Origin: Escherichia phage kaaroe
Strand: one strand, 5' to 3'
DNA length: 64,000 nucleotides
Sequence record: MN850574.1
The notes under the pieces were generated by a model. It worked only from the letters and a program-made list of their open reading frames with translations, made no database searches and was not told where the DNA came from. The translations under genes were made by a program, and so were the position numbers. Numbering within the stretch: the stretch's first letter is position 1; each line of letters starts with the position of its first letter. Shown piece after piece: positions 4,051 through 24,903 of the stretch.

Positions 4051-4060
4051 GGAAATTATT

Positions 4061-4228: not shown

Positions 4229-4229
4229 T

Positions 4230-4472: not shown

Positions 4473-4473
4473 A

Positions 4474-5142: not shown

Positions 5143-5143
5143 T

Positions 5144-5317
5144 ATGCCATTATACGATTATTCTTGTGAAGAACACGGTCAATTTCAGAAAATCCGCAAA
5201 ATTTCCGAGCGTGAAAAGGCAGAATGCCCTGAATGCGGTAAAGAATGCAAACAGGGATTGACTGCCCCGCGCGGGATTAATGGCGGGTACTATGATAAAA
5301 ATGTGCGCGTGTCATGA
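5144..5317 (+). CDS. FmdB-like zinc-ribbon protein
   Basis: MPLYDYSCEEHG...CPECG: CxxC...CxxC zinc ribbon; start overlaps dexA stop. Confidence 0.55.
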   Translation: MPLYDYSCEEHGQFQKIRKISEREKAECPECGKECKQGLTAPRGINGGYYDKNVRVS

Positions 5318-5416
5318 GTCATATACTTGACAATCACTCAATTTTTAATATGATTGTTGCAGCCGTCTTTGTGGCGGTTGCAGTAAGTTATGGTTATGTT
5401 ATGAAGAGGTTTAATA

Positions 5417-7240
5417 ATGAGTGAGTTTCGCATTTTATCTGATCGTGAACATGTCCTTAAGCGTGCAGGAATGTATATAGGATCAACAACTTACGAAGAA
5501 CATCAACGTTTCCTGTTCGGTAAATGGACAAAAATTTCATACGTTCCTGGACTGGTTAAAATCATTGATGAGATCATCGACAACTCTGTAGACGAGGCGA
5601 TCCGCACTAACTTTGAATTTGCCAATGTGATTAGCGTCGATATCCAAAACAATATTGTTACTGTAACAGACAATGGTCGCGGTATTCCTCAACATATGGT
5701 TACTACCCCAGAGGGTACGCAGATTCCGCAACCTGTCGCCGCATGGACACGAACAAAAGCAGGGTCTAACTTTGATGATACCAATCGATTAACGCAAGGG
5801 ATGAACGGTGTGGGGTCGTCGTTGTCAAATTTCTTTAGCGATTGGTTTACTGGTGTGACCTGTGACGGCGAAACAGAAATGACCGTTCAATGTACAAACG
5901 GTGCTGAAAATATCACATGGTCATCGAAACCATCAAAATTGAAGGGAACAAAGGTTACATTTTGCCCAGACTTCGACCACTTCGAAGGTTATATGATGGG
6001 CAACTCTGTTTTAGATATTGTTCATGATCGTCTGCAATCATTGAGCGTAATATTTCCTAAGATCACGTTTAAGTTTAATGGTAAACGTATTGTTAGTAAG
6101 TTCAAGGATTATGCTAAACTATACAATGATGATCCGTTTGTCATTGAAGATAAAAACTTTTCACTTGCCCTAGTTCCTGCGGTCGAGGGAGAAGGTTTTA
6201 AATCAGTATCCTTTGCTAATGGTCTGTTTACCAAAAACGGGGGAACACACGTTGATTATGTGACAGATGATCTTTGTGAAGAGATTGTAAAACGAATCAA
6301 GAAAGAATATAAGGTTGATGTTACTAAAGCTGCGGTTAAGTCTGGATTGACCTGTATTCTTATTGTTCGTGAATTGCCTAACCTTCGTTTTGATTCACAG
6401 ACAAAAGAACGATTGACTAATCCAACTGGTGATATCAAGCGTCATATTGATCTTGATTTTAAAAAGCTGGCTAAAGTCATTGCTAAGAAAGAAAACATTA
6501 TCATGCCTATTATTGCTGTAGTCCTGGCACGCAAAGAGGCAGCAGATAAAGCGGCAGCGACTAAGGCAGCAAAGGCAGCGAAACGGGCTAAGGTGGCAAA
6601 ACACGTTAAAGCTAACCTTATTGGAACTGACGCAGAAACTACCCTGTTTTTGACGGAAGGTGATTCCGCGATCAACTATCTGATCTCTGTACGTGATCAA
6701 GATTTACATGGAGGTTTCCCGTTGCGAGGCAAAACTCTTACAACGTGGGAACAACCGGAGGCAAAGATCGTTAAGAACGCCGAAATTTTTAACATCATGG
6801 CGATCACTGGCTTGCAATTTGGTGTTGATGCATTGGAAGTTATGCAATACAAAAATATTGCGATTATGACCGACGCTGATACTGACGGGATCGGGTCTAT
6901 TAAACCTAGTCTGATCTCTTTCTTTGCACGTTGGCCTGAATTGTTCGAAGATGGACGAATCCGGTTTATCAAAACACCTATTATCATTGCGGAACCAAAG
7001 AAAGGTGATGATGTTCGATGGTATTATGACCTAGAAGATTTCGAGAACGACCGAGATAATATCAAAGGTTACAACATTCGATATATCAAAGGTTTAGCAT
7101 CGCTCACAGAATCAGACTATCATCGCGTGATCAACGATCCTGTCATGGAGATCATCACGTTACCGGAAAACTATAAAGAGCTATTCGATTTGCTCTATAG
7201 TGAAGATGCAGATCAGCGCAAAATTTGGATGCAATCATAA
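5417..7240 (+). CDS. 39: DNA topoisomerase II large subunit, fused gp39+gp60 (GHKL ATPase + Toprim)
   Basis: N-terminal GyrB-like ATPase motifs (IDNSVDE, DNGRGIP, GLNGVG-like) and C-terminal Toprim (EGDSA, DADTDG) in one 607-aa ORF. Confidence 0.93.
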   Translation: MSEFRILSDREHVLKRAGMYIGSTTYEEHQRFLFGKWTKISYVPGLVKIIDEIIDNSVDEAIRTNFEFANVISVDIQNNIVTVTDNGRGIPQHMVTTPEGTQIPQPVAAWTRTKAGSNFDDTNRLTQGMNGVGSSLSNFFSDWFTGVTCDGETEMTVQCTNGAENITWSSKPSKLKGTKVTFCPDFDHFEGYMMGNSVLDIVHDRLQSLSVIFPKITFKFNGKRIVSKFKDYAKLYNDDPFVIEDKNFSLALVPAVEGEGFKSVSFANGLFTKNGGTHVDYVTDDLCEEIVKRIKKEYKVDVTKAAVKSGLTCILIVRELPNLRFDSQTKERLTNPTGDIKRHIDLDFKKLAKVIAKKENIIMPIIAVVLARKEAADKAAATKAAKAAKRAKVAKHVKANLIGTDAETTLFLTEGDSAINYLISVRDQDLHGGFPLRGKTLTTWEQPEAKIVKNAEIFNIMAITGLQFGVDALEVMQYKNIAIMTDADTDGIGSIKPSLISFFARWPELFEDGRIRFIKTPIIIAEPKKGDDVRWYYDLEDFENDRDNIKGYNIRYIKGLASLTESDYHRVINDPVMEIITLPENYKELFDLLYSEDADQRKIWMQS

Positions 7241-7244
7241 CACT

Positions 7245-7271
7245 TGACATACAAGGGAGATTCTCTATAAT
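7245..7271 (+). promoter_or_regulatory. sigma70-type early promoter
   Basis: TTGACA-15-TATAAT; inverted repeat GGGAGA/TCTCCC flanks the -10. Confidence 0.45.
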
Positions 7272-7305
7272 GGGAGTCTCCCTTTTCTTTTATGAGGATT
7301 TAACG

Positions 7306-7605
7306 ATGAGCAAAAAGAATAACATGATGATGAGTATGGCAAAGTTCATGGAAGCAGACCTGATCAAAAATACAGTACAGCATGAACGCCAGCGAGAAGC
7401 CGCAGTGATTGCAGAACAAGGTTTTCAGGTTATCCGCAATCCACCTAAAGATACGATTAAATCGAAATACAGAGAAGATCTGAAAGACCATGAAGTACGG
7501 GAACTGGTTAATGATCTGCGTGACATTGCCATCAAATATCATGGTTATCAGTGCTTACGAGAACTGATCGCAGAGCGAGTAATGGATGCATTGAAAAAAG
7601 ATTAA
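7306..7605 (+). CDS. hypothetical protein
   Basis: ATG 7306 with SD GAGGA; preceded by promoter. Confidence 0.55.
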   Translation: MSKKNNMMMSMAKFMEADLIKNTVQHERQREAAVIAEQGFQVIRNPPKDTIKSKYREDLKDHEVRELVNDLRDIAIKYHGYQCLRELIAERVMDALKKD

Positions 7606-7612
7606 AAATCTG

Positions 7613-7641
7613 TTGACACTGGATCGGGGATATATCATAAT
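7613..7641 (+). promoter_or_regulatory. sigma70-type early promoter
   Basis: TTGACA-17-CATAAT with GGGGAT/ (A)TCCCC dyad around -10. Confidence 0.55.
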
Positions 7642-7671
7642 GTCCCCATCGAAAACAAAAGGTTGACTTAT

Positions 7672-7866
7672 ATGAAACCGTTTAAGAATGAAGAAACTCA
7701 AAAATTTTGTGAAAAAATTGCAGAAATCTACTTGACAGGGAATAAGGAAAAAGCTAATATTATGTTCAAAGAGTCAGTTTCCATGATGAAAGTAGCACGC
7801 TGGGAACTGATCGCAATGCAAGACCAAATTCGTTATCTAGTAACAAAGGAGAATCAAAATGCGTAA
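7672..7866 (+). CDS. hypothetical protein
   Basis: ATG 7672 downstream of promoter. Confidence 0.5.
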   Translation: MKPFKNEETQKFCEKIAEIYLTGNKEKANIMFKESVSMMKVARWELIAMQDQIRYLVTKENQNA

Positions 7867-8053
7867 CCATTACATCGAATTGGCAAGCCGTAAAGTTTCA
7901 GACCTGAAAGGCGTAATTGCTTACTATGAAGAAGTCCTGAAAAACGAAATTGCCGAGTGGGAACGTAAAGAATACAGCAAGTGCTTAGAGAAAAGCCGCG
8001 CTGAACTGGTTGACGCAGAAGCCCATCTGCAATGGGTAATTGAAAATGTATAA
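7859..8053 (+). CDS. hypothetical protein
   Basis: SD AAGGAGA before ATG 7859; overlaps previous stop. Confidence 0.5.
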   Translation: MRNHYIELASRKVSDLKGVIAYYEEVLKNEIAEWERKEYSKCLEKSRAELVDAEAHLQWVIENV

Positions 8054-8064
8054 GGAGTAGAAAA

Positions 8065-8322
8065 ATGAGTCGAAGTTTTGATTTTATGATCGCCAAGTGT
8101 CATAGAGAAAAGAAATCGATGGACCTATTTATGAAATGTCTGAGATATGAATATGCGCACCTTCGTAAACACAAAATTGACCCGCAAGTTTCCTACGAAA
8201 ACATCAAGAAATATGCGAAAGAAGTGATTGACAACGATTGCACCGTGACATATAATGCGTTTATTGATTTATGGGCGTGGGATGTAATCTACGCAGAGAT
8301 GGACAAAGAAGATTTTAATTAA
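8065..8322 (+). CDS. hypothetical protein
   Basis: SD AAGGAG before ATG 8065. Confidence 0.5.
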   Translation: MSRSFDFMIAKCHREKKSMDLFMKCLRYEYAHLRKHKIDPQVSYENIKKYAKEVIDNDCTVTYNAFIDLWAWDVIYAEMDKEDFN

Positions 8323-8336
8323 GTGAGGATTATATT

Positions 8337-10445
8337 ATGAAAATGCATATTGATAATGAAGAAGTATTTGGCAGTGACTTGAGCGGTGCGGTTGATTTTT
8401 CACTGAAAGCAAGTAGCAAGGCTTTTATGGTGCTTTCTAAGAACACTTATCAATATTGTGAACGTGCTTGCGTCCGTGAGTATTCGTGCAATGCTACCGA
8501 CACTCACAAAGAAGCCGGAACCTTAGATCGTCCGTTTGATATTCATTTACCGACTGCAATCGAACCGTATTTTTCTGTGCGTGATTATGGTACTGGTATT
8601 CCGTCTAAGAAAGAATTAGAACAACTGTTTACGGTTTACTTTGAATCAACAAAAGACCAGACTAATGATTATATCGGATCTTTTGGTTTAGGTGCGAAAT
8701 CTGCTTATAGCTATACCGACACCTTTACAATCGTAAACTATTACAATGGTCGCGCTTATGGCTTTACGGCATTTGTGCAAAACTCTATGCCGAAAATGGT
8801 GCAGATTTTCGACGAACCGACCTATGAAGACAACGGTCTGAAAATCACTATTCCGGTGAAAGAAAAAGACATTCAGACATGGCATCGAGAAGCGCAATTT
8901 GTACTGCGTCATTTTGGGGAACACAAACCTAATATCAATGCAATCGAAATTAATTATTTCCCTAGCTTTGATAATTATTATGTGTGTAATGGGCGTGATA
9001 ACGATTCCTATGTAGTATATGCAATCATGGGTAAGATCCAGTATCCGATCCCGTATGAATATGTTCGCGGAACATGGTTAGAAGCTGTAAACCGCCAGCA
9101 CCAGACCATTTACATTAATTTTGAGTTGGGTGATCTGGACCTTATGCCATCGCGTGAAGAAGTTCACTTGTCAATTGAGACTAAAGCGAACATCGAAAAA
9201 CGCATTGCAGAAATCAATGAAATGATGTTGGAAAAGGTTAAAGAAAAGATCGCCAACATTAAAACAGAGCGTAAACTTGCGCAATTTATGAGCGAGTATT
9301 CATCGACTCAACGCAATATTATTAGCAAGATGGGTAAGATCGGACAATGGGACGATCCGGTAGCAATCTATAATAAGTTTGTTAATGCGGGTAAAGATTC
9401 GCCTAATGACGTAGAAGGTCAGGTGTATACTCTGTATCGTACTCGTCACACAATAAGTAAATTGCGCCCTGCTTTCGTTAGCAGTCAATACAACATTACG
9501 CATTTTGTATGGATGCATAAAGAAGATATTACGTGTCTTATTGATGATACCGATAAACCGAAACTGCGTGCACTGACTCTTAACGGCATGGTCCAGGAAT
9601 ACGGCATCAATAAAAAGGTACTGGTGTTCCGTCAGAAAAACGAAAAACATATGGAGACTTTCGAGTACATCAAACAGTATTATGATGATTCTGAAATGAC
9701 CGTGATTAAAGTGTCTGAGGCCGATGATCTGCGTGCTAAAGCAGTTAAACCGGAGAAGACCGAGCGTACACAACGTGAAGCGACTCCTAAGCTGCCTAAC
9801 GTGTATATCATGGAAAAGATTGGTGACAGTTGGCATAAAACCAGCCATCACATGAAAGCGGCAGAGATTCGCGAGTTATCAGGCTTGCACATGTTCCGCG
9901 TAGGTGATGCATTCGAAAGCCGTAGTCGTAAATCGATCCATAGTGAAAATACATTACACACGGCGCTTGACTACTTCGGGGTAACAAAGTATATTATTAC
10001 TCGAAACGAGACACAAAAATATCTCGTTGACGAACAATTGGAATGTGCGCTAGAATTTGTTCGCGGTAAGCTGGCTGGTCTGGCTAAGAAGGTTAAGACC
10101 AATCATCTGGGGTATGGCGAATATCTGGGTGTGATCACTATGTTGTTTCATGACGATGAACTAGAACGCTGTGTTCCAGAATTTATTGACAGACTGTACG
10201 GTCGTCATTATAATAAAGAGGTTTCCAAGTTACTCCTTCGTACTCGTTGGATTATGGACGCAGAAACTAAAAAGATTTGTGATGAAAAATTCACGGTAGC
10301 AAACGAACGAATTAAAGCAGTTTGTGCGAAGTTTAAAGAGAATAGCCCGTTACTGTATGATATTGTAGATAACTGGTATCGTATTCTGCATAATGACAAA
10401 CGCGCACAAGACTTTATGAAACTGGTTAAGAATGTTAAATTTTAA
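8337..10445 (+). CDS. rIIA: rIIA membrane-associated protein (GHKL ATPase-like)
   Basis: 702 aa (T4 rIIA ~725); N-terminal HATPase-like motifs (DYGTGIP, GSFGLGAKSAY); followed by rIIB. Confidence 0.85.
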   Translation: MKMHIDNEEVFGSDLSGAVDFSLKASSKAFMVLSKNTYQYCERACVREYSCNATDTHKEAGTLDRPFDIHLPTAIEPYFSVRDYGTGIPSKKELEQLFTVYFESTKDQTNDYIGSFGLGAKSAYSYTDTFTIVNYYNGRAYGFTAFVQNSMPKMVQIFDEPTYEDNGLKITIPVKEKDIQTWHREAQFVLRHFGEHKPNINAIEINYFPSFDNYYVCNGRDNDSYVVYAIMGKIQYPIPYEYVRGTWLEAVNRQHQTIYINFELGDLDLMPSREEVHLSIETKANIEKRIAEINEMMLEKVKEKIANIKTERKLAQFMSEYSSTQRNIISKMGKIGQWDDPVAIYNKFVNAGKDSPNDVEGQVYTLYRTRHTISKLRPAFVSSQYNITHFVWMHKEDITCLIDDTDKPKLRALTLNGMVQEYGINKKVLVFRQKNEKHMETFEYIKQYYDDSEMTVIKVSEADDLRAKAVKPEKTERTQREATPKLPNVYIMEKIGDSWHKTSHHMKAAEIRELSGLHMFRVGDAFESRSRKSIHSENTLHTALDYFGVTKYIITRNETQKYLVDEQLECALEFVRGKLAGLAKKVKTNHLGYGEYLGVITMLFHDDELERCVPEFIDRLYGRHYNKEVSKLLLRTRWIMDAETKKICDEKFTVANERIKAVCAKFKENSPLLYDIVDNWYRILHNDKRAQDFMKLVKNVKF

Positions 10446-10456
10446 GAGGTGATATT

Positions 10457-10588
10457 ATGACTAAACTGACCGCTATCCAGAAAGAAACCATCCGTAAACA
10501 ATACGCTCGCGGCTTGACTAAAGGCGAACTGGCACGAATCTATAATGTATCAGACCGCACAATCCGCAAGGTTGTCGAAGCAAAATAA
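10457..10588 (+). CDS. small helix-turn-helix protein (43 aa)
   Basis: TKGELARIYNVSDRTIRKVV HTH-like; manually translated, below ORF-track cutoff. Confidence 0.4.
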   Translation: MTKLTAIQKETIRKQYARGLTKGELARIYNVSDRTIRKVVEAK

Positions 10589-10650
10589 TTCTGGTATAAT
10601 GATGTGAATCGGGCGGCGATAGTCGCCCAACTAATAGAGGAATGAATACT

Positions 10651-11643
10651 ATGACTAAAGCAAAAATCACCGTCTCTGACCGTAACGTTCAATGCCTGGA
10701 TTCTGAAAAACAAATCAAACTGGCTAAACAGTGGGGCGAAGGTAAGTTTACTACCCGCGAAGCACTTGCGGCAGCATTTGGGGTATCTCGTCGTACTGCC
10801 TCCCGTGTATTACTGATTCAGAAAGACGCAGTAGCGGAAGGTCGCAAGGCACTAGAAAAACGTAAAGCACGCCGTAAAACCAGTAAAGGAAAAGGCGGTG
10901 AACGCGCAAAAAAGCCCGTGACTACTTCCTCAAAAATCGTAGCAATAGCCTCAACTAAGTTTATTACTATTACATGTGGTGACATTGTTTATACTGCTGA
11001 TCCATCGCATGTTAACTTTAATGAAGCACTGGAAGCGATTAAACATAATGATTTCATCAAAGCTATTACGCTGATTGACATTAAGAAAGCGGTTGAAGTA
11101 TATTATCACGGCGCTTTCCGTATCGAAAATGGTATTGTGTATTATCATAATATTGTTCTTGATAATAATCTGACTCGTCGAGTTGTGGAGTCGATTAAAG
11201 AGAATAAGCCATATACGCACTATCTGAACTTCTTTGAGAAGTGCAAGAAGAATCCTAGCCGTAAGGCGGTAGATCGTCTGTTTGACTTCTTAGAGCACAA
11301 CGACATTGAGATCGGGGAAGATGGTTGTTTCTATGCATGGAAACGTGTTGATGTTGATTATAAAGATTTCTTTACGCATACGTTTGATAATAGCCCAGGG
11401 CGCACGGTTAAAATGAAGCGTAAAGACGTGGACCCAGATGATGATCGCACTTGCTCTAATGGCCTCCACGTTGCAGCGAAACACTATATTCCTCACTATG
11501 GCGGTGGACGAGGCCGAATCATTAAATGCAAAGTTGATCCGCGTCACGTTGTAAGTATCCCGAAAGATTATGCGAATGCCAAAATGCGCTGCCATCGTTA
11601 CTATGTGGTTGAAGATGTAACCGAAGGTTTTAGCCATTACTAA
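10651..11643 (+). CDS. rIIB: rIIB protein
   Basis: SRLFDFLEHNDIEIGEDGCFYAWKRV, FDNSPGRTVKM, VSIPKDYANAKMRCHRYYVVEDVTE match T4 rIIB; alternative ATG at 10642. Confidence 0.93.
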   Translation: MTKAKITVSDRNVQCLDSEKQIKLAKQWGEGKFTTREALAAAFGVSRRTASRVLLIQKDAVAEGRKALEKRKARRKTSKGKGGERAKKPVTTSSKIVAIASTKFITITCGDIVYTADPSHVNFNEALEAIKHNDFIKAITLIDIKKAVEVYYHGAFRIENGIVYYHNIVLDNNLTRRVVESIKENKPYTHYLNFFEKCKKNPSRKAVDRLFDFLEHNDIEIGEDGCFYAWKRVDVDYKDFFTHTFDNSPGRTVKMKRKDVDPDDDRTCSNGLHVAAKHYIPHYGGGRGRIIKCKVDPRHVVSIPKDYANAKMRCHRYYVVEDVTEGFSHY

Positions 11644-11657
11644 CAGAGGAATTAATT

Positions 11658-11984
11658 ATGGTTGATATGAAAGTTACTTGCGAAAGTGCACATGTTGAAG
11701 TTGAAAGTAGCCAATATTCATTGCGTCCGTCCGGTCGCGTTACTGTGACTATGGATGATGTTGATTTGGTTAATAATGTTAGTGTTGAAGATATCGTTAA
11801 TGAGTATGATCATAGCGAACTACTAGACGCAATTCCTGAACATGTTGTGATCCAGCACGTAGTAAGCAATAATGATCCATCGACTTTCATTAAAGAATAT
11901 GGCGCTGATGAAATGCTCGATGAAATTGGCGAAAAGATTGTTATTGCATGGCTTGAAAACAACGGTTATACTGTAGAACAATAA
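11658..11984 (+). CDS. hypothetical strongly acidic protein
   Basis: About 23 D/E versus about 5 K/R in 108 aa. Confidence 0.5.
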   Translation: MVDMKVTCESAHVEVESSQYSLRPSGRVTVTMDDVDLVNNVSVEDIVNEYDHSELLDAIPEHVVIQHVVSNNDPSTFIKEYGADEMLDEIGEKIVIAWLENNGYTVEQ

Positions 11985-11992
11985 TCAACATA

Positions 11993-12015
11993 GGCCGCTT
12001 TGCGCGGCCTTTCTT
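11993..12015 (+). terminator. rho-independent terminator
   Basis: GGCCGC-TTTG-GCGGCC hairpin followed by TTTCTT. Confidence 0.55.
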
Positions 12016-12029
12016 AGAGGGAATACATT

Positions 12030-12323
12030 ATGACGGTCACGGTTATTACCAAATACGACGACGAAAATGTGATTTACGGTGACGTGGTTGTTGTTCACGG
12101 TCGTAGCATGAAAGTTACTGGTAATTGTAAAGATGGTGCTATTATTTGCGGTGAATTGGTGAGAACAGTCAATCCTATCACCGACGAACAAAAGCGAGTC
12201 ATTATCAGAAAACTTAAAGACAGTGGATATTGTAACGTCGTGGTGATTCAAGAAAAAATTGAAGTAGGTCACTTATACACAAATCAGAAAACAATTCCTG
12301 TATCAATGGTTAAAGGCGGTTAA
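12030..12323 (+). CDS. hypothetical protein
   Basis: SD GAGGGAA before ATG 12030. Confidence 0.5.
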   Translation: MTVTVITKYDDENVIYGDVVVVHGRSMKVTGNCKDGAIICGELVRTVNPITDEQKRVIIRKLKDSGYCNVVVIQEKIEVGHLYTNQKTIPVSMVKGG

Positions 12324-12325
12324 TA

Positions 12326-12688
12326 ATGCTAGGTCATTCTAAAATAGAAGATTGCTCATTCAGAGCAATGAAAGATGATTTTTCGGTCCTGTACGCGTCT
12401 ATCCGAGAGTTGTTTGTAGATTTTAAGCAATTCAGAGAATACAAAGGCGTTAAGATGCGGGAGTGGGTATTCTGGCCTTTCTATATCATTACTCTGTTTT
12501 CTATGGTATTTTGTTTTGTCGGGATCACTATCGCTAGTTTTGTCACTTGCGTTTTCCTGATTATCAGGTGTATCATGTTTGCTTTGATTGCTGCCCCGTT
12601 TATTGTGTCAATCCTTCCGTTAAAATGGCTATTGGATTGGGCTGATAAATCTGATAAAGTAAAGAATGTGATTTGTAAGCGTGTATGA
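12326..12688 (+). CDS. hypothetical membrane protein
   Basis: Long hydrophobic segments (FYIITLFSMVFCFVGITIASFVTCVFLIIRCIMFALIAAPFIVSILPL). Confidence 0.5.
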   Translation: MLGHSKIEDCSFRAMKDDFSVLYASIRELFVDFKQFREYKGVKMREWVFWPFYIITLFSMVFCFVGITIASFVTCVFLIIRCIMFALIAAPFIVSILPLKWLLDWADKSDKVKNVICKRV

Positions 12689-12695
12689 GGTGAAG

Positions 12696-14042
12696 ATGAA
12701 TAAATCAGTTACTTACCGCAGCCTTGAAAGCATTGTACATAATGAAGCTAAGGAATATGCGATCTATTCTGCCGAGGAACGCGGGATTCCTCAATTAGTG
12801 GATGGGCTTAAACCAGTGCAACGCTTTGTTATGGAGTGCGCACTTCAAAAGAGTAAAGGTGACCGTAAGAAATTCCGTAAGATGGCAGATATTGGATCTG
12901 GTGTTGCTGAGTTGGGGTATCACCACGGCGAAACTAATGCCGTAGAAGCCGGATCACTCATGGCGAATACATGGAGCAATAATACTCCACTGCTTGACGG
13001 TCAAGGTAACTTCGGATCGCGTTTAGTCCAGAAAGCAGGTGCGGCACGTTATATCTTTGCTCGCGTGCATGAAAACTTCTTTAAAATCTATAAAGATATG
13101 AATTGCGCACCTAAGCACGAAGATCTGGAACACATCCCGCCAGCGTTCTACTTGCCAGTTGTGCCAATGGTATTGGCTAACGGTATTAGTGGTATTGCTA
13201 CAGGGTATAAAACTGACATTTTACCGCATTCACTGGAAAGCCTTATTGAATGCACAGAGCTAGCACTTGCCGGAAAACTGGATAAAGAACCTAGTGTTCA
13301 ATTCCCGAAATTCACGGGTAAAGTTATCCCGCGAGATGATCGCGATGGTGTGATTCTTGAGGGTACATATGAACTAAACGGCAAGACTAAACTGACAATA
13401 TCAGAAGTTCCTTATAAGTTCGACCGTGAAGAATATGTAGCGGTACTGGATGCACTGGAAGAAAAAGATCTGATTGTATCGTATAATGACCGTTGCTCTA
13501 AGGACGGATTCAGATTTGAAGTAACACTGAAACGCGATTATTTCAAAAGCGAAGATGAATCCGCTCGACATGAGCAAATCATGAAGGATTTTAAACTAAC
13601 GCAGTTAGTAGCCCAGAATATCGTAGTAGTTAACGAACGTGGTTTAGTAGAAGTATTCGAGAAAGCGAGCGATCTGATCCGTCGATTCGTCGAAATCCGA
13701 TTAGGGTATGTCGATAAACGCATTGAATTGATGCAAGCGGAAACGCTGGAAGCATACAATTATGCAATGGCTAAAGCCGAATTTATCGATCGCGTAATTA
13801 AGGGCGAAATCGAGCTACAGGGCAAGAAAAAGGCCGAGGTAATGCAATCCATCAATGGACATGAAAAACTGCGTCCATACGCCGATAAGCTAGTTTCTAT
13901 GCCATTGTATAGCGTTACTCAAGAAGAGTATGATCGACTGGTCAAAGATGCCGATAAACATCATAGTGAATATGAGTATTGGACAAAGACGACCGCAATG
14001 AAGGAATATAAGAAAGATCTTAAAGAACTTAAGAAGGGTTGA
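12696..14042 (+). CDS. 52: DNA topoisomerase II medium subunit gp52 (GyrA-like)
   Basis: KPVQRFV, GYHHGE, LLDGQGNFGSR, ARYIFARV, IPPAFYLP match T4 gp52. Confidence 0.93.
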   Translation: MNKSVTYRSLESIVHNEAKEYAIYSAEERGIPQLVDGLKPVQRFVMECALQKSKGDRKKFRKMADIGSGVAELGYHHGETNAVEAGSLMANTWSNNTPLLDGQGNFGSRLVQKAGAARYIFARVHENFFKIYKDMNCAPKHEDLEHIPPAFYLPVVPMVLANGISGIATGYKTDILPHSLESLIECTELALAGKLDKEPSVQFPKFTGKVIPRDDRDGVILEGTYELNGKTKLTISEVPYKFDREEYVAVLDALEEKDLIVSYNDRCSKDGFRFEVTLKRDYFKSEDESARHEQIMKDFKLTQLVAQNIVVVNERGLVEVFEKASDLIRRFVEIRLGYVDKRIELMQAETLEAYNYAMAKAEFIDRVIKGEIELQGKKKAEVMQSINGHEKLRPYADKLVSMPLYSVTQEEYDRLVKDADKHHSEYEYWTKTTAMKEYKKDLKELKKG

Positions 14043-14044
14043 TT

Positions 14045-14242
14045 ATGAAAGAATATCCAGAAGGCGGTTATATTGCATTTGTGTACAACAATAAAAAGAT
14101 TGTGCCAATGGTCGTTGAGACTATGGAAGAAGCCAACCGGATCACTATTGAATCTCTGAGCAAATTAGCAGAGATGACAAACACACCAGAACACAGAGCA
14201 AAGATCGACAGCTTGATGAAAGAATTTTCAGAGAGGAAATAA
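14045..14242 (+). CDS. hypothetical protein
   Basis: ATG immediately after gene 52 stop. Confidence 0.45.
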   Translation: MKEYPEGGYIAFVYNNKKIVPMVVETMEEANRITIESLSKLAEMTNTPEHRAKIDSLMKEFSERK

Positions 14243-14245
14243 ATT

Positions 14246-14641
14246 ATGACTGAACGACGCATTACTTCAAATGGTTTGGGTACTCATCATGCCTGGATGG
14301 TTGACCCAGACAAAAATCCTTATAAACTTTACGATACAACGATTAAACCGTGGAATAATGGCGTATGGAAAACACCACCCACAACAGCACCTATTATGAC
14401 TGATCAGAAACCGTTTAGCCCGATGGCGGAACCAGTACAGATTAAGCCGTTACCTTACCAGATAACGACGAATAGCATCACCAACAAACAAGAAAATGAT
14501 ATTGATATGATCTACGAGATGATTAAACTTTGGCGTGATGTTTATCTGGGTGTTCTCTGCAACACAGATAAAAGTGCACATGCGGCAGCGGTACTGGCAT
14601 CTCATGCAGTAGACGAAGCCAAAAAGAAATTTAGTAAGTAA
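14246..14641 (+). CDS. hypothetical protein
   Basis: SD AGAGGAAA before ATG; followed by terminator. Confidence 0.5.
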   Translation: MTERRITSNGLGTHHAWMVDPDKNPYKLYDTTIKPWNNGVWKTPPTTAPIMTDQKPFSPMAEPVQIKPLPYQITTNSITNKQENDIDMIYEMIKLWRDVYLGVLCNTDKSAHAAAVLASHAVDEAKKKFSK

Positions 14642-14651
14642 CTGATTATTA

Positions 14652-14680
14652 AGCCGATCCTTGTGGTCGGCTTTTTTATT
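14652..14680 (+). terminator. rho-independent terminator
   Basis: GCCGATCC..GGTCGGC hairpin followed by TTTTTTATTTT. Confidence 0.7.
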
Positions 14681-14690
14681 TTAAAAGTTG

Positions 14691-14719
14691 TTGACTTCCA
14701 TAATCCATCATTGCATAAT
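14691..14719 (+). promoter_or_regulatory. sigma70-type early promoter
   Basis: TTGACT-17-CATAAT plus conserved leader ACACACATACC..AGGAGAATCAAAG, ATG 14751. Confidence 0.6.
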
Positions 14720-14750
14720 ACACACATACCAAACAAAAGGAGAATCAAAG

Positions 14751-15023
14751 ATGAACAACGAAAACAGCAAAGTGTTGGCAATTGCAGATAAAGTAGGTTA
14801 CTGGAAATGCTGGGATGATATGGAGAAATTAGGCGGTCGCTATCTCGATAACTTAGAGTTGCATTATTGCCAAGCGCGTAATGCAGAAGTTGCGGGAGTA
14901 GCAATCGAAGATATTCCGTCTAAAGTCTTCGGATTCTCTAAAGATGATACTCTAGAATATGTTTTCAAGGCTGTTATGGATCAAGCATGGGAAGACGCAG
15001 AGACACGCGCTCTTGACTGGTGA
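14751..15023 (+). CDS. hypothetical protein
   Basis: ATG 13 nt after conserved RBS cassette. Confidence 0.55.
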   Translation: MNNENSKVLAIADKVGYWKCWDDMEKLGGRYLDNLELHYCQARNAEVAGVAIEDIPSKVFGFSKDDTLEYVFKAVMDQAWEDAETRALDW

Positions 15024-15027
15024 TAAT

Positions 15028-15198
15028 ATGAACTGGTATAAAATTTGGAAAAATCAGGTGGAGGCTTATCTAGGGTATAAGCCAACCGACGAAGAATTAC
15101 TTGAAGCAATGTACGAAGACGGCTTAAATCCGAAAGTAGCCGCGCAAGAATACGCGGAATGGGTGAAGGTCGAAGATAACCTAAAGGGGAAACTATGA
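15028..15198 (+). CDS. hypothetical protein
   Basis: ATG 15028 just after upstream stop. Confidence 0.45.
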   Translation: MNWYKIWKNQVEAYLGYKPTDEELLEAMYEDGLNPKVAAQEYAEWVKVEDNLKGKL

Positions 15199-15395
15199 AG
15201 AAAATGATTGCGATTGCTTTGCTGGCTAGTGCATGTACGGTAAATGCTAATACCGCAGCGATGGTCGCGGCTGTAACTGCTGCAAATGCGTCTGTTATGG
15301 CATCGCAAGAGGCAGCACGCCAGCAAGCACAACAAGAAGCCCAGCGAAAAGCACATGAGGCGACGAAAAATTTCACGAAAATAACAAAAAACTAG
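15195..15395 (+). CDS. hypothetical secreted small protein
   Basis: N-terminal signal-peptide-like MKKMIAIALLASACTVNA; start overlaps upstream stop. Confidence 0.5.
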   Translation: MKKMIAIALLASACTVNANTAAMVAAVTAANASVMASQEAARQQAQQEAQRKAHEATKNFTKITKN

Positions 15396-15396
15396 T

Positions 15397-15425
15397 TGAC
15401 GCCAAAGGTCATCGGTAGTATTATA
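15397..15425 (+). promoter_or_regulatory. sigma70-type early promoter
   Basis: TTGACG-17-TATTAT, leader CATACCGAAACGAACTGGAGG, ATG 15459. Confidence 0.55.
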
Positions 15426-15458
15426 CTCCCATACCGAAACGAACTGGAGGAAATAAAA

Positions 15459-15701
15459 ATGGTTAAAGTTAATGTTATCGAAGTTGCACTGTACGACGCT
15501 GGGATCTTCCTGAATGAAAAAGAAGCTGCCGTCCTCGACGAACTGAAAACTGTTTTTGTTCCTGTAGTAGAAGACGTAGAAGCAATCAAAATCGCTTCTC
15601 GTAAACTGTCCCGCGAAGCATTCGACATGATTGATCCGGTTTTCAAAGTTATGCACGAATGCGCGGTTATGATGACCGAAGAAGAAGCGAAAAATTTCTA
15701 A
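15459..15701 (+). CDS. hypothetical protein
   Basis: ATG after conserved leader. Confidence 0.55.
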   Translation: MVKVNVIEVALYDAGIFLNEKEAAVLDELKTVFVPVVEDVEAIKIASRKLSREAFDMIDPVFKVMHECAVMMTEEEAKNF

Positions 15702-15708
15702 AAACTAG

Positions 15709-15737
15709 TTGACGTAAAGATAAGGGAGTAGTAACAT
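15709..15737 (+). promoter_or_regulatory. sigma70-type early promoter with dyad over -10
   Basis: TTGACG-17-TAACAT; inverted repeat GGGAGTA/TACTCCC brackets the -10; ATG 15767. Confidence 0.55.
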
Positions 15738-15766
15738 ACTCCCATACCAAACGAAAGGAGAATCAC

Positions 15767-15976
15767 ATGAAATCTATCGAGCAAGTAGTAACAGAGTTTA
15801 TGAGCTACGAAGGAAACCGCATCTTTGGACGTTCTCAAGTTCGCGAGATCGTAGAAGAAGTTGCTGGAGAGTTTGCGGAATCTGGTCACATTATCACGCA
15901 AGAACGTAAAGAAGAAGCAGTAAACCAGATCATGGCTATACAGAAAATGCGTATTAATGCACGAGCGGGGGCTTAA
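15767..15976 (+). CDS. hypothetical protein
   Basis: ATG after AGGAGAATCA RBS. Confidence 0.55.
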   Translation: MKSIEQVVTEFMSYEGNRIFGRSQVREIVEEVAGEFAESGHIITQERKEEAVNQIMAIQKMRINARAGA

Positions 15977-15977
15977 A

Positions 15978-16277
15978 ATGAATTTTACCGATAAAGTTTT
16001 TGAAATTAGTCGCACTACTTCAATTAAAAATCTTAGGGCGGCTGCATTTATGGTTGATAAAGGGTTTAATATGGCATCGTCTGACGGTGTACCGTACTTT
16101 GCACCAACTTTCGTTGGCTGGATGACTGATCGTAAACGTGATTACACTAAAGCATATCCGCATATGGTACTTAGTAAAATTATCACTAAAGTGTATCCAC
16201 ATATGGTACTTAATGACGTTATCACGGACCACGATCACTTTACAAACTTTATTGTTTCCGGTGAATGGCGAAAATAA
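15978..16277 (+). CDS. hypothetical protein with internal direct repeat
   Basis: AYPHMVLSKIITKVYPHMVLNDVIT repeat; ATG 15978. Confidence 0.45.
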   Translation: MNFTDKVFEISRTTSIKNLRAAAFMVDKGFNMASSDGVPYFAPTFVGWMTDRKRDYTKAYPHMVLSKIITKVYPHMVLNDVITDHDHFTNFIVSGEWRK

Positions 16278-16288
16278 TTTAAAACTAG

Positions 16289-16317
16289 TTGACACCGGAT
16301 TAAGGGAGTAGTAACAT
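16289..16317 (+). promoter_or_regulatory. sigma70-type early promoter with dyad over -10
   Basis: TTGACA-17-TAACAT, GGGAGTA/TACTCCC dyad, ATG 16352. Confidence 0.55.
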
Positions 16318-16351
16318 ACTCCCATCAAGACAAAACACTGAGGAATATATT

Positions 16352-17110
16352 ATGAAAAACATTATCGCTGCTATCGTTCTTTCTGCTACTGCTTTCGGTG
16401 CTAACGCTGCGTCCTTTGATTGCGCTAAAGCTACTACCAAATCAGAGAAGTTTATTTGTGCTAATGAGTCTATCTCCGCACTGGACTCTAAACTTCATGA
16501 GGTGTATGTTAAGGCTGTTAAGATTGATCCGTCTCTGAAACAAGAGCAACGAAACTGGAATAAAACTGTTCGTGATACAATGATCAATATAGGGCAGATT
16601 CAGCCACTGGAGGCTGTATATAACGCTCAAATCCAAAACTTGATGAATGTATTACCTAAAGAAGAAACCGCGTCAGAAAGCGATTCAGAGACTTCTGCGA
16701 AGGTTGAAGAAGAACAACCGAAACAGGAAGCAAAAGTGGTAGAAGAACCGAAGGTCGAAACTTTTACCTATCAATGTACCGTTCGTTATGAGTGGAGTAT
16801 GAAAGATGGAATTTCCACAAAAATTAAAGAGGCTCCACTGTATGCAAAATATGGAAACCAGCCAGGGGATCTTAAAGTAACCATTAAAAATGGGAAGATG
16901 GTTGATTTTGTATACACTGATGAATACAACGTACACAAAGCAAACGTACAAGAAACCGTTATGACTAAAGGCGGGTTTTATAAGAATGTTGGCAAGAAAG
17001 ATCTATATGAATACTCCGTTTTCGAACCAAACGACGGAACTATTCGATTTGAAAAACGTCATCCTACATTCGGTGGAGCAATTGATGTAGATCAATACGT
17101 TTGCAAGTAA
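16352..17110 (+). CDS. secreted protein with LprI/DUF1311-like N-terminal domain
   Basis: Signal peptide MKNIIAAIVLSATAFGANA; FDCAKA..FICANE..LD..L..VY...Q..W...RD pattern. Confidence 0.6.
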   Translation: MKNIIAAIVLSATAFGANAASFDCAKATTKSEKFICANESISALDSKLHEVYVKAVKIDPSLKQEQRNWNKTVRDTMINIGQIQPLEAVYNAQIQNLMNVLPKEETASESDSETSAKVEEEQPKQEAKVVEEPKVETFTYQCTVRYEWSMKDGISTKIKEAPLYAKYGNQPGDLKVTIKNGKMVDFVYTDEYNVHKANVQETVMTKGGFYKNVGKKDLYEYSVFEPNDGTIRFEKRHPTFGGAIDVDQYVCK

Positions 17111-17121
17111 GAGGTTAAATT

Positions 17122-17409
17122 ATGCAATTCAATAACATGAAGATTACAAAAGATTGGTGGAAGGCGATGCAAGATACTCCAGAAACCAAATTAAGCGAGA
17201 CAACAACCACAATACAAGTTGATTACGAAGATCCGAAAGACATATACAGAGAGATTTTAATCAGAGAGCTTATAAAAGCTGGAAACTATCAAACACCAGA
17301 TGGCCTTATTGACATGATGGTTAAAGGTCTGTATAGTGGTAAAAATCCAGATATTTTACCGTGGTACGAGGGATATTTTAAAACATATCGTGACCACAAC
17401 CGAAAATAA
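17122..17409 (+). CDS. hypothetical protein
   Basis: SD GAGG before ATG 17122. Confidence 0.5.
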   Translation: MQFNNMKITKDWWKAMQDTPETKLSETTTTIQVDYEDPKDIYREILIRELIKAGNYQTPDGLIDMMVKGLYSGKNPDILPWYEGYFKTYRDHNRK

Positions 17410-17432
17410 GTTGTTGACGTGAGGATTATATT

Positions 17433-17624
17433 ATGGTAATTTTTAATCGCGATGGTATCATAGTTCGGCAGCATCCATTCCTTGAATACTATCAGGTTGA
17501 ACAATGGGGATATGGAGATTGCAACCGCTCATACGGTCAAAGCTGGGGATACCGTACAGTTTTTGAATCAACTAATATTGACAAAGTACGACAGAAAGTT
17601 TTAGAACTTCTTAACGATAAGTGA
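17433..17624 (+). CDS. hypothetical protein
   Basis: Preceded by recurrent GTGAGGATTATATT-ATG initiation cassette. Confidence 0.5.
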   Translation: MVIFNRDGIIVRQHPFLEYYQVEQWGYGDCNRSYGQSWGYRTVFESTNIDKVRQKVLELLNDK

Positions 17625-17634
17625 GGATTACATC

Positions 17635-18003
17635 ATGGAAATTCAAAACAATTACGAAAAATGTGTTATTATCAATGATTTGCAACGTCAATTGCACAAC
17701 TACGAAACCGATTATAAAACAGCAACCAAAACTGGAAAGCTGAAAGTGTGGGAAGTCTGGTATAACCGGAACTATCTGGGAAGCATCCACAAACTTGATC
17801 GCAGTGATGTTTATACAATGCATGTAGGCGCTTGTGGTGAATCGGATGTAGCATTTAATTTCATGGAAGCACTTGCATTCTATGTAGAATATCTGGTAGA
17901 CTATATCGAGTTGGAAGAGGAAGTTGTAGAATTGCTTCCTCCACCGGAAGAAGCGCCGGAAGCAACGATCCTGAAAGCATTAAAGAAAATCTTTGTTAAG
18001 TGA
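17635..18003 (+). CDS. hypothetical protein
   Basis: GTGAGGATTACATC-ATG cassette; acidic proline-rich C-terminus. Confidence 0.5.
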   Translation: MEIQNNYEKCVIINDLQRQLHNYETDYKTATKTGKLKVWEVWYNRNYLGSIHKLDRSDVYTMHVGACGESDVAFNFMEALAFYVEYLVDYIELEEEVVELLPPPEEAPEATILKALKKIFVK

Positions 18004-18011
18004 GGTGAACT

Positions 18012-18344
18012 ATGAAAAATGTACTGATTGTGTGGGAACTGATTCCAGAAACTACTGAATTATACATGGTACAGGTTGACAATAAAGAATTTGAAATTCT
18101 GAAACGCGTCAACTGCAAATATATTAACATTGATGACATGACCCCAGAAATGGACTATGTAAACTATGCTCTCATGCAGCCTAGTTGGATTATGGATGAA
18201 ACTAAAGCAGACGCCGAATCGCTGGGTGTACCGGAAGAAGTATTAGCGAAATGGCATCAATTCAAAGTTGAAATAAAAGAGGGCGAACCGTTTATTCCTA
18301 GCGGTAAGATCGATGCGGTGATCGTAACAGGTTTTCATCTGTAA
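18012..18344 (+). CDS. hypothetical protein
   Basis: SD GAGGTGAA before ATG. Confidence 0.5.
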   Translation: MKNVLIVWELIPETTELYMVQVDNKEFEILKRVNCKYINIDDMTPEMDYVNYALMQPSWIMDETKADAESLGVPEEVLAKWHQFKVEIKEGEPFIPSGKIDAVIVTGFHL

Positions 18345-18356
18345 GGAGATTATACA

Positions 18357-18689
18357 ATGTTTAACTATGACAAATATGAATCATGGAAAGCGACCGAATT
18401 GAAAGAGGCAGCGCGGTTAATCACACCGCGTCTTTATCCGGTGTTGTTTAGCGCAGATAAAGTAACAAGGGAAGTAAACGAGGCGCTATCGGTTTTAGGC
18501 TATCTGATCGATAAAGTAGAGAAAACATCGGTATTCACAAATAGCGTAGAATATACCCGGTATCGAGTGTTTTTAGATTCCTTGCTCGTTGTCATTAAGG
18601 CACTAAATGATCATAACTACACCATGAACATGACGAAAATAATCGACGAAGCAAGAATTATGACAGAGAATATTTTCGGTAAATTTTGA
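18357..18689 (+). CDS. hypothetical protein (paralog of 18804-19127)
   Basis: Shares EVN.A.., AR...EN.(F/Y)GKF C-terminal motifs with the next-but-one ORF. Confidence 0.5.
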   Translation: MFNYDKYESWKATELKEAARLITPRLYPVLFSADKVTREVNEALSVLGYLIDKVEKTSVFTNSVEYTRYRVFLDSLLVVIKALNDHNYTMNMTKIIDEARIMTENIFGKF

Positions 18690-18803
18690 TTATGAAAGAT
18701 GATGAATCATTGAAAATTGCACTGGTTATGCTATTACAAGGTATAGAATTAGCAAACCACGAAAAAATGTTGAAACAACAGCGTGAAATTATGAGAGGTG
18801 ATT

Positions 18804-19127
18804 ATGATCGAGTTTGAAATTGACAACTTTCACGAAAAAGCAGAAGACCTAACCAAAATTTTGATTAGTCGAGGTGCATATAATACGAAAGATATTATAA
18901 AAGAAGTTAATGTAGCGATGGACGCGATCCGAAAGGAATTTAAACATATTTCAGCGATTGGAGAAAATGGTCATCTTGAAGATGTTGAGCTGGTAGCACT
19001 GCGACGCTATTACTTCTTTGTTGATTGCATCATTGATCTAGCTAAAAATTATAGTCATTACATGAAAGATATTGTAAAAGATGCACGTAAGCTGGCAGAG
19101 AATGTTTACGGGAAGTTTCCAGAATGA
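18804..19127 (+). CDS. hypothetical protein (paralog of 18357-18689)
   Basis: ATG 18804 after SD GAGAGGTG; similar length and C-terminal motif. Confidence 0.5.
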   Translation: MIEFEIDNFHEKAEDLTKILISRGAYNTKDIIKEVNVAMDAIRKEFKHISAIGENGHLEDVELVALRRYYFFVDCIIDLAKNYSHYMKDIVKDARKLAENVYGKFPE

Positions 19128-19372
19128 AATTAGAACAAGCGATTGTATACTTTGAGATGGGCTATGATATTGCTCGTGTAGAGTGGGAAGATGGTGATTT
19201 TGTCCGATTGATTGATCTTCCAGAAACAGCTATTGCACTGGTCAAAGTAGAAAACGGCGTACAACGAAATTACGCGTTTTCTGACGAAGACAAACAAGCC
19301 GATGACTGGTACGCTACCTGTTTTCATCATACAGCGTCAAAATGCGATTCAGGCGCGTCTATGCGCCAATAA
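19124..19372 (+). CDS. hypothetical protein
   Basis: Start overlaps upstream stop (ATGA). Confidence 0.45.
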   Translation: MKLEQAIVYFEMGYDIARVEWEDGDFVRLIDLPETAIALVKVENGVQRNYAFSDEDKQADDWYATCFHHTASKCDSGASMRQ

Positions 19373-19375
19373 AAA

Positions 19376-19402
19376 GAAGGGGAGGCCGAAAGGCTTCCCC
19401 TT
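19376..19402. terminator. bidirectional hairpin terminator between convergent genes
   Basis: AGGGGAGGCC-GAAA-GGCTTCCCCT between + ORF (stop 19372) and minus-strand holin (stop 19407), T-runs on both sides. Confidence 0.6.
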
Positions 19403-19406
19403 TAAG

Positions 19407-20063
19407 TTATCTAATCCTTCCGAGGATTCTGGCAGATTGATTGCAAAGAGTATCTAAATTCTCAATGTCAATATCCGGTTTATTCTTCCATGAAATGGCG
19501 ATACTACCAGAATAGACATTATCGAGATTGAATATAGGACAAGAATACATGAAACCTATATCGATATTCTCTAATTTCTTTTCTCTTGATGGAATATACT
19601 GGAAATCTTTATCGGTAAAATATGATTTACCTAAAAGATGCCTACGATATTCTTCACTCGTTTTATTGATAGGGAATCCGCCTAAATTTTTTTCATCGAT
19701 TGTGTGAGGTAGCTTTCCTTCATATGCCACCAAATCAACAAAATAGTTTAGGTTTTTCGGACGAAAACTAAAAACAGCAGAAAAATCGGCATCAGCCGAC
19801 ACATGAACTATCTGTAACTGCTCCTGTGCTGCATTATCAAAATTGCGGTCTTTCTCTACCTGGAGAATGTGAGCATAAGTCTCATAACGAGTCTCTTTAT
19901 AAAGCGCAAATAACTCGTTTTTACTATAAACGACAAATGCTAATATGGACAACACGACGGCAGCAAAAACACGAAGTACGAGCAACTCCGTGCTTTTAGT
20001 TGTGAAAATAGCGCGCAGGACATTTGAGATAGCAAAGTCTTTCCCTTTTTCAGAAACTTGCAT
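19407..20063 (-). CDS. t: holin (T4 gpt family)
   Basis: LEQLQIVHVSADADFSAVFSFRPKNLNYFVDLVAYEGKLP, MYSCPIFNLDN, ICNQSARILGR match T4 holin T. Confidence 0.93.
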   Translation of the reverse strand: MQVSEKGKDFAISNVLRAIFTTKSTELLVLRVFAAVVLSILAFVVYSKNELFALYKETRYETYAHILQVEKDRNFDNAAQEQLQIVHVSADADFSAVFSFRPKNLNYFVDLVAYEGKLPHTIDEKNLGGFPINKTSEEYRRHLLGKSYFTDKDFQYIPSREKKLENIDIGFMYSCPIFNLDNVYSGSIAISWKNKPDIDIENLDTLCNQSARILGRIR

Positions 20064-20096
20064 ATAATGCCCTAAGATAACTATGACAGTGTACTC

Positions 20097-20336
20097 TTAT
20101 TTAGGTAGTTGACTATCACTAGGTTTATCTTGCTCGTTACTATCTTCTGACTGATCTTTATTAAACTCCTTATAAAGTTCTTCCACAAAACGATCATCAA
20201 TTGGCGTATTGGTATAAGCCGCAAGACGACGAGCGCAATAGAAGAAAATTTTAGTGAGCATCTTTTCACTAATTAACTTTGACAATAATTTCATTCCGAA
20301 ATTAGACAAAGCACCAATGACGATATTATAGACCAT
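20097..20336 (-). CDS. hypothetical small protein between gene 37 and holin
   Basis: SD AAGGAGA; hydrophobic N-terminus; occupies the position of gene 38 but is only 79 aa. Confidence 0.5.
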   Translation of the reverse strand: MVYNIVIGALSNFGMKLLSKLISEKMLTKIFFYCARRLAAYTNTPIDDRFVEELYKEFNKDQSEDSNEQDKPSDSQLPK

Positions 20337-23139: not shown

Positions 23140-23185
23140 TTTATAAAATCCTTAAACGGTTATTAGAATAATATTATTTAGAAAA

Positions 23186-23204
23186 GCGGGGATTGTCTCC
23201 CCGC
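23186..23204 (-). terminator. hairpin (possible attenuator) between genes 36 and 37
   Basis: GCGGGGAGACAATCCCCGC followed by TTTTC on minus strand. Confidence 0.4.
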
Positions 23205-23209
23205 TAAAA

Positions 23210-24896: not shown

Positions 24897-24903
24897 AAAA
24901 ATG

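Follow-up and report, generated by a model that had tools for sequence, protein, structure and literature searches.

The stretch analysed here comprises 64,000 nucleotides (nt) of Escherichia phage kaaroe (MN850574.1), about 39% of a genome of ~164 kb, and is called the window. Between positions 8337 and 20063 it carries rIIA, rIIB, gene 52 and the holin gene t, and in T4 the gap between the last two of these genes includes motA and asiA, the genes of sigma appropriation at MotA-dependent middle promoters. The gene content of this region, the presence of motA and asiA, and the promoters of the early strand were investigated. The features from rIIA to t are as follows (E, expectation value).

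8337-10445, + strand: rIIA, 702 amino acids (aa), with weak HATPase_c matches in Pfam and annotated in the collinear stretch of RB49
10457-10588, + strand: stand-alone helix-turn-helix (HTH) open reading frame (ORF) of 43 aa, equal to RB49ORF272c (CENP-B_N E=7e-6, Sigma70_r4 E=2e-4, phrog_15481 E=3e-34)
10642-11643, + strand: rIIB, 333 aa (tblastn with T4 rIIB, 44% identity over 321 aa, E=3e-76)
11658-11984, 12030-12323 and 12326-12688, + strand: three Krischvirus-specific ORFs (ORFans) from the ORF list, filling the gap between rIIB and 52
12681-14042, + strand: gene 52, topoisomerase II medium subunit (Pfam DNA_topoisoIV E=6e-69; 51% identity to T4 gp52, E=9e-147)
14039-19127, + strand: sixteen small ORFs on the early strand, 43-252 aa (Pfam, PHROGs, NCBIfam, and blastp against T4 proteins)
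19124-19372, + strand: Tad2-like (DUF2829) ORF, 82 aa (Pfam PF11195 E=2.4e-6, 28.4 bits against a cut-off of 25)
19378-19402, no strand assigned: perfect GC-rich hairpin GGGGAGGCC-GAAA-GGCTTCCCC, read from the sequence, within the 34-bp gap between the early cluster and t
19407-20063, - strand: holin t (Phage_holin_T E=4.5e-61; 49% identical to T4 t)

We found that rIIB and 52 are separated by 1,037 bp containing exactly three small ORFs, which correspond to RB49ORF270c, 269c and 268c, respectively. All three belong to PHROGs families of unknown function, and none had a Pfam or NCBIfam match or, by tblastn with T4 proteins, a T4 homologue. The third (12326-12688) is hydrophobic (grand average of hydropathy 0.70), and a GC-rich hairpin lies in the same gap at 11992-12010. 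The 52-t interval is 5.36 kb long and holds 17 + strand ORFs of at least 43 aa (14039 to 19372); 15 of the 16 small ORFs in 14039-19127 are without known function, the exception being 16352-17110. Beyond t, gp37 begins at 20377. Convergence of the early genes on t is common to T4 and this phage, and the hairpin at 19378-19402, which separates the early cluster from t, probably terminates transcripts from both directions. The anchors rIIB, 52 and t of T4 keep their order and orientation here, with amino-acid identities of 44-51%. The spacing between them is different: the rIIB-52 gap is 2.76 kb with 14 ORFs in T4 and 1.04 kb with three ORFs here, whereas the 52-t gap is 3.0 kb with 9 ORFs (motA and asiA included) in T4 and 5.36 kb here.

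An earlier note, written from the letters of the window, had placed gene 52 and holin t where the Pfam matches to DNA_topoisoIV and Phage_holin_T now put them, and its picture of a rIIB-52 gap of only ~1 kb with three small ORFs agreed with the count given above. The start of its interval, 10445, is the stop of rIIA and not that of rIIB. Its estimate of ~15 ORFs between 52 and t was too low for this phage, although it equals the number annotated in RB49.

Judged by sequence comparison, the source phage is an RB49-like (Krischvirus) T4-type coliphage, with RB49 (AY343333), phi1, JSE and FL37 as its kin in the genus Krischvirus of the Straboviridae. Fifty-eight phage records matched the interval 10445-19400, and for 53 of them the match extended over 80% or more of it, with identities of 95-99%. 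Krischvirus phages matched it over 100% of its length at 97-98.6% nucleotide identity; the closest records were Escherichia phages FL37, FL15 and Delraymugoa (98.3-98.6% over 100%), and the identity of RB49 across the interval was ~97.8%. The whole window is collinear with RB49 in reverse orientation and, a few indels aside, 96-98.6% identical to it: positions 1-10445 correspond to RB49 10444-1 (98.6% identity) and 10446-64000 to RB49 164018-109392, with collinearity broken by indels at 15185-16276, 20745-22006 and 34011-34971. The part at 22006-34011 is 96.5% identical to the RB49 segment that carries gp33 and dsbA. Gene order is also the same in the two phages (rIIA, the 43-aa ORF, rIIB, three ORFans, 52, ORFans, t, 37), and the GenBank record of RB49 lists rIIB, ORF270c-268c, 52, ORF266c-253c and t, with 15 ORFs between 52 and t and neither motA nor asiA annotated. 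The differences from the RB49 relatives are small indels, which represent ORFan modules with PeSL promoter cassettes (see below) at their flanks, and a diverged tip of gp37.

MotA, AsiA and MotA-box promoters

The absence of MotA and AsiA was examined with Pfam, PHROGs, NCBIfam, tblastn, and purpose-built hidden Markov models (HMMs) with hhalign scans, and the complete genomes of the Krischvirus phages RB49 and LF73P4 (OZ035795) were searched besides the window. Neither the MotA domains PF09114 (MotA_activ) and PF09158 (MotCF) nor AsiA (PF09010) was found by Pfam at E<=0.1 in any ORF of 7859-20336. PHROGs and NCBIfam assigned the small ORFs of the interval to no family of known function, barring weak DNA-binding/HTH matches of the 43-aa ORF. 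The best tblastn matches of T4 MotA and AsiA to the window and the whole of RB49 reached only E=0.23 and E=0.37, respectively. When the 26 T4 proteins from rIIB to t were compared with the window by tblastn (E<=0.05), homologues were found only for rIIB, 52 and t. None of the 23 noncore ORFs that T4 carries between these anchors has a counterpart here, and these include asiA, asiA.1, arn, arn.1-4, motA, motA.1 and 52.1, together with ac, stp, ndd, ndd.1-6, denB and denB.1.

The MotA HMM was built from more than 80 homologues collected in a search of 5.8 billion proteins. The first AsiA homologue search reached only members at least 59% identical, and the AsiA HMM was then widened with six distant AsiA genes, from Acinetobacter phage AM101, Cronobacter phages VP8 and LPCS28, Aeromonas phages Aes012 and CC2 and coliphage VR5, which go down to 34-41% identity with T4 AsiA. 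For the targets, the window, RB49 and LF73P4 were translated in six frames and cut from stop to stop into segments of 25 aa or more, which are independent of gene calls and start codons. In these three sequences the best AsiA match had E=0.1-0.14, and the best MotA match, at E=0.004-0.018, was a local match of 12-14 bits in frd.2. The hhalign comparison of 352 window ORFs with the MotA and AsiA profiles gave a maximum probability of 24.6%, over 19 columns. Krischvirus phages were absent among the named MotA homologues, and among the 45 AsiA-positive records listed, of 1,169. Because the same searches recovered T4 MotA (E=4e-95) and T4 AsiA (E=6e-43), this absence goes beyond a failure of detection. 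MotA and AsiA are absent from the interval, the 64-kb window, RB49 and LF73P4.

Four candidates were considered and set aside. The frd.2 match (RB49 36982-38160, E=0.018; the LF73P4 copy, E=0.004) covers only the N-domain/linker region of MotA, T4 carries frd.2 besides MotA, and Pfam gives frd.2 only a weak sub-threshold RecT match; the similarity in RB49 and LF73P4 is probably due to chance. ORF 15195-15395 matched MotA residues 80-109 at E=0.002 by blastp in a database of 26 proteins, but the matching part is a low-complexity Ala/Gln/Glu-rich stretch of a 66-aa signal-peptide protein. A tblastn alignment of AsiA at window 60776-60991 (25% identity, E=0.38) falls within the alt gene and was regarded as chance. 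ORF 18798-19127 comes from the neighbourhood equivalent to that of asiA, and its AlphaFold2 model is a predicted 3-helix bundle (predicted local distance difference test score 74) whose best Foldseek matches in the PDB are generic helical bundles (best E=0.2), with no AsiA among them. A search of 5.8 billion proteins gave a single cluster of homologues for this ORF.

The promoters on which MotA acts were counted with three patterns based on the consensus given in the literature, (a/t)(a/t)(a/t)TGCTTtA-N11-13-TAnnnT. The sense-strand matches to the three patterns were as follows.

T4 1-50 kb, sense strand: 6, 10 and 20 matches against 0.65, 2.05 and 6.05 expected
Window, sense strand: 0, 1 and 2 matches against 0.36, 1.45 and 5.0 expected
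Whole RB49, sense strand: 0, 3 and 15 matches against 1.0, 4.0 and 13.2 expected

On the sense strand of T4, MotA boxes exceeded expectation 5- to 9-fold, and the matches there coincide with known middle promoters, such as PuvsX, P45, P45.2 and PrIIB2. None of the three counts on the sense strand of the window was above chance. A separate scan for middle promoters on both strands found 5 sites against 2.74 expected, with no sense-oriented site in an early region. The phage has no MotA-box middle promoters.

Sigma-70 promoters and PeSL cassettes

Sites resembling sigma-70 promoters showed the opposite trend. At a score of at least 10/12, 70 sites were found on the + strand and 11 on the - strand, with 12.7 +/- 3.0 expected per strand, and 61 of the 70 sense sites lay within early-gene regions. 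Dozens of the sense promoters have an extended sequence in common, for example aaaaagttgTTGACAggggatcNNNgatccccTATAATacacacatacc. The common cassette consists of an AT-rich tract, gttgTTGACA, a GC-rich palindrome (e.g. ggggatc...gatcccc), TATAAT, acacacatacc and a Shine-Dalgarno sequence, and the palindrome is located either in the spacer or over the -10 element. Full -35/-10 promoters stand directly 5' of modB, srd, 39 and rIIA, and the gene 32 promoter at 32848 scores 12/12 and coincides with an 'early RB49 promoter' annotated in AY343333. Orthologues of T4 middle genes thus carry full -35/-10 elements, and remodelling of the AsiA type would inhibit such promoters.

The PeSL (promoter-early stem-loop) motif was described in RB49 and phi1 by Arbiol et al. 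2010 (PMC2839356), who reported promoter and terminator activity of PeSLs by experiment, a role in ORFan shuffling, and mini-circles formed by recombination between cassettes. The cassettes of the window have the characteristics of this motif, being repeated and located 5' of ORFans, with an AT-rich tract, -35/-10 elements near the consensus TTGACA-17-TATAAT and a GC-rich stem-loop. Nothing substantive differs between them and the cassettes of RB49 and phi1; the same elements occur in a close relative. The following promoters and cassettes were recorded in the interval.

10572-10600, + strand: sigma-70-like promoter TTGTCG-17-TATAAT with extended TG, ~40 bp 5' of rIIB
14651-14750, + strand: PeSL-type cassette with hairpin, T-run, AT-rich tract and TTGACT-17-CATAAT, followed by a Shine-Dalgarno sequence
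15376-15440, + strand: PeSL-type early promoter cassette, TTGACG-17-TATTAT
15689-15765, + strand: PeSL-type cassette, TTGACG-17-TAACAT, with stem-loop GGGAGTA/TACTCCC across the -10 element
16269-16331, + strand: PeSL-type cassette, TTGACA-17-TAACAT, with the same stem-loop GGGAGTA/TACTCCC as at 15689-15765
17309-17337, + strand: sigma-70-like promoter TTGACA-17-TATAGT (11/12), within ORF 17122-17409 and 5' of ORF 17433

Four PeSL-like copies are thus present between 52 and t (14651-16331), with repeats of 25-30 nt. One repeat family (D6) has an identical 25-nt core at 15721 and at 16301, and these two cores bracket ORFs 15767-15976 and 15957-16277. The stretch between them (15767-16277) is exactly the one missing or altered in the relatives: RB49 has nothing that corresponds to window 15185-16276, and LF73P4 lacks 15969-16288. 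The arrangement at 15376-16331, with its three cassettes, is what PeSL-mediated shuffling of modules might be expected to leave. Within the same locus, ORF 15957-16277 contains a tandem 39-nt duplication (16145-16222, 82% identical) encoding the repeated peptide TKAYPHMVLSKII / TKVYPHMVLNDVI.

Transcription of the prereplicative genes

We consider it very probable that the interval is an RB49-like one without MotA, AsiA or middle promoters and is driven by sigma-70. The observed part of this explanation is that the genes and the motif are absent and that sigma-70 promoters are abundant and biased towards one strand; their early firing in vivo and the lack of a third temporal class we infer or take from the literature. 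The interval would represent the rIIB-52-t 'hyperplastic region' of a Krischvirus T4-type coliphage whose lineage either never acquired or lost sigma appropriation by MotA and AsiA, and which would consequently have no MotA-dependent middle promoters. The prereplicative genes, and with them the many ORFans particular to the lineage, would be transcribed by unmodified host RNA polymerase with sigma-70 from numerous -35/-10 promoters close to consensus, many of which belong to repeated PeSL cassettes. The PeSLs may also terminate upstream transcripts and serve as recombination sites at which ORFan modules are swapped. Late genes would depend on the conserved gp55/gp33/gp45 system, and the 'middle-like' timing of replication genes could result from combined early and late promoters, as proposed in earlier work on RB49.

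The genes of the late apparatus are in fact present. RB49 has gp55 (61% identity) and gp45 (33% identity) by tblastn, and it also keeps rpbA, srd, modB and alt; its annotation includes gp33 and dsbA, whose counterparts in the window are ORFs 31892-32161 and 31639-31914. In contrast, gene 42, a-gt, b-gt, modA, motB, srh and mrh are absent from RB49. The compact rIIB-52 gap fits a lineage without the hydroxymethylcytosine pathway (gene 42, a-gt, b-gt), and the lack of this pathway, viewed in the light of established T4 biology, would fit the absence of denB and arn here.

Transcription of the RB49 type without MotA and AsiA is already known, having been reported between 2002 and 2010. RB49 was found to have neither a motA ortholog nor a middle-promoter consensus, and AsiA orthologues were given for RB69, 44RR, Aeh1 and KVP40 only (Nolan 2006, PMC1524935). 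No motA or asi homologues were reported in RB49 by Clokie 2010, who, citing Desplats 2002, attributed its middle-like timing to a presumed overlap of early and late promoters (PMC2984593), and RB49 is not among the phages named as having motA and asiA (Hinton 2010, PMC2988021). RB49 and the phage studied here share the lack of motA, asiA and MotA boxes and the presence of PeSL cassettes. Neither motA nor asiA is present in S-PM2 and Syn9, T4-like cyanomyoviruses whose transcription is presumed to rely on sigma-70-like early promoters and late promoters (PMC2984593), but these are far more distant and infect different hosts. KVP40 and Aeh1 have no recognisable motA but have kept asiA (PMC2988021), whereas the phage studied here lacks both.

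The earlier note had seen no AsiA or MotA between 52 and t and had named profile searches for the two proteins and a search for MotA-box promoters as checks. Every method borne on the proteins (Pfam, PHROGs, NCBIfam, tblastn, HMMs and hhalign) agreed with it, the profile searches being negative in the window, RB49 and LF73P4 with the T4 controls recovered, and the box counts fell out in the same direction, enriched in T4 and not in the window. Its suggestion that the phage, without these genes, would lack T4-type middle-mode transcription is supported by the absence of both the genes and the boxes. Its further suggestion of a reliance on early cassettes is supported with one nuance: the excess of sense sites speaks for the cassettes, but the timing probably results from early promoters combined with late ones.

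Several points weigh against the explanation favoured here. For the other ~100 kb of this genome, absence of the two genes is extrapolated from two relatives at 97-98% identity. The late-promoter motif TATAAATA was not enriched in the window (3 sites against ~5 expected), and the statement that RB49 has two promoter classes rests on secondary citations and on GenBank promoter annotations. About 20 ORFs of unknown function lie in the interval syntenic with that of motA and asiA, KVP40 AsiA functions with T4 MotA at an identity of only 27% to T4 AsiA (PMC2988021), and a non-homologous functional analogue could lie beyond the reach of sequence and profile methods. The ORFs of unknown function would suit a scenario in which the functions of MotA and AsiA reside in non-homologous or diverged ORFans, perhaps between 52 and t, which would serve a cryptic middle mode with a different promoter box. 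Hinton 2010 raises such a possibility for phages with AsiA and without recognisable MotA (PMC2988021), and the stand-alone HTH ORF at 10457-10588, with its weak similarity to sigma-70 region 4, could be counted in its favour. Nevertheless, profiles and hhalign gave no signal, the one ORFan modelled, 18798-19127, gave a generic 3-helix bundle with no significant PDB match, whereas AsiA has six helices, full -35/-10 promoters stand directly 5' of rIIB, 32, 39, srd and modB, and the literature reports only early and late promoters for RB49 (PMC1524935, PMC2984593), so that we consider a cryptic middle mode improbable. A shade less probable still is that the phage itself encodes the means of early shut-off or of a switch to a middle stage, in a 52-t ORFan or in the 43-aa HTH protein. 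Such a factor would be non-homologous to MotA and AsiA and would have a new mode of action on sigma-70 or the beta-flap; no data in this analysis point towards it.

The two other scenarios concern the completeness of the search. Relocation of motA and asiA to the part of the genome outside the window is conceivable in that the window covers only ~39% of it and breaks in synteny do occur, gp38 having a shifted position in RB49 relative to T4. However, the complete genomes of RB49 and LF73P4 were negative by HMMs and tblastn, the RB49 annotation contains neither gene, and MotA boxes are unenriched across the whole of RB49, which makes relocation very improbable. The faintest chance of all is given to an artefact of missed small or unusual ORFs (alternative starts, frameshifts or split genes). 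AsiA has only 90 aa and ORF callers easily miss genes of this size, but the six-frame segments and tblastn on raw DNA do not depend on such callers, and the T4 controls were recovered in the same way. The sigma-70-driven, RB49-type interval is therefore the explanation we retain. Its value is mainly one of annotation, in that it places the window in Krischvirus, and with positive controls it confirms a textbook-level contrast between the RB49 type and the T4 type in sigma appropriation, MotA boxes and PeSL density. The three-stage transcription programme of T4 is not universal in Straboviridae, and the question arises how strong -35-dependent early promoters are shut off without AsiA.

Small ORFs, gp37 and LF73P4

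The 43-aa HTH ORF, which sits between rIIA and rIIB, is 41% identical to residues 7-45 of T4 rIIB, corresponding to the N-terminal HTH (in a comparison restricted to a 26-protein database), and showed no BLASTP similarity to the N-terminus of this phage's own rIIB. The Tad2-like ORF at 19124-19372 adjoins t, which is the place of asiA in T4, VR5 and AM101. Its product could act in counter-defence by sequestering Thoeris signals; in a phmmer search no PDB sequence matched it at E<=1. Among the other small ORFs of the + strand, 16352-17110 (252 aa) combines a signal peptide with an N-terminal domain of the LprI/DUF1311 'lysozyme inhibitor' type (PF07007, E=1.4e-5), after which come a linker rich in Glu and Lys and a C-terminal domain of unknown type, and ORFs 18357-18689 and 18798-19127 are a paralog pair (phrog_9457) with a C-terminal ...ENxxGKF motif.

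Outside the interval, gp37 (20377-23139, - strand) contains a stretch at 20745-22006 that is unmatched in RB49 or only 79% identical to it, while the flanks are 96-98% identical; this divergence is probably variation in the receptor-binding tip. In LF73P4, an unannotated record, blocks of the window map in altered order and orientation, for example 24748-33994 to 56743-65993 and 50983-57655 to 37698-31002, which suggests either a rearranged genome or an artefact of assembly or permutation.

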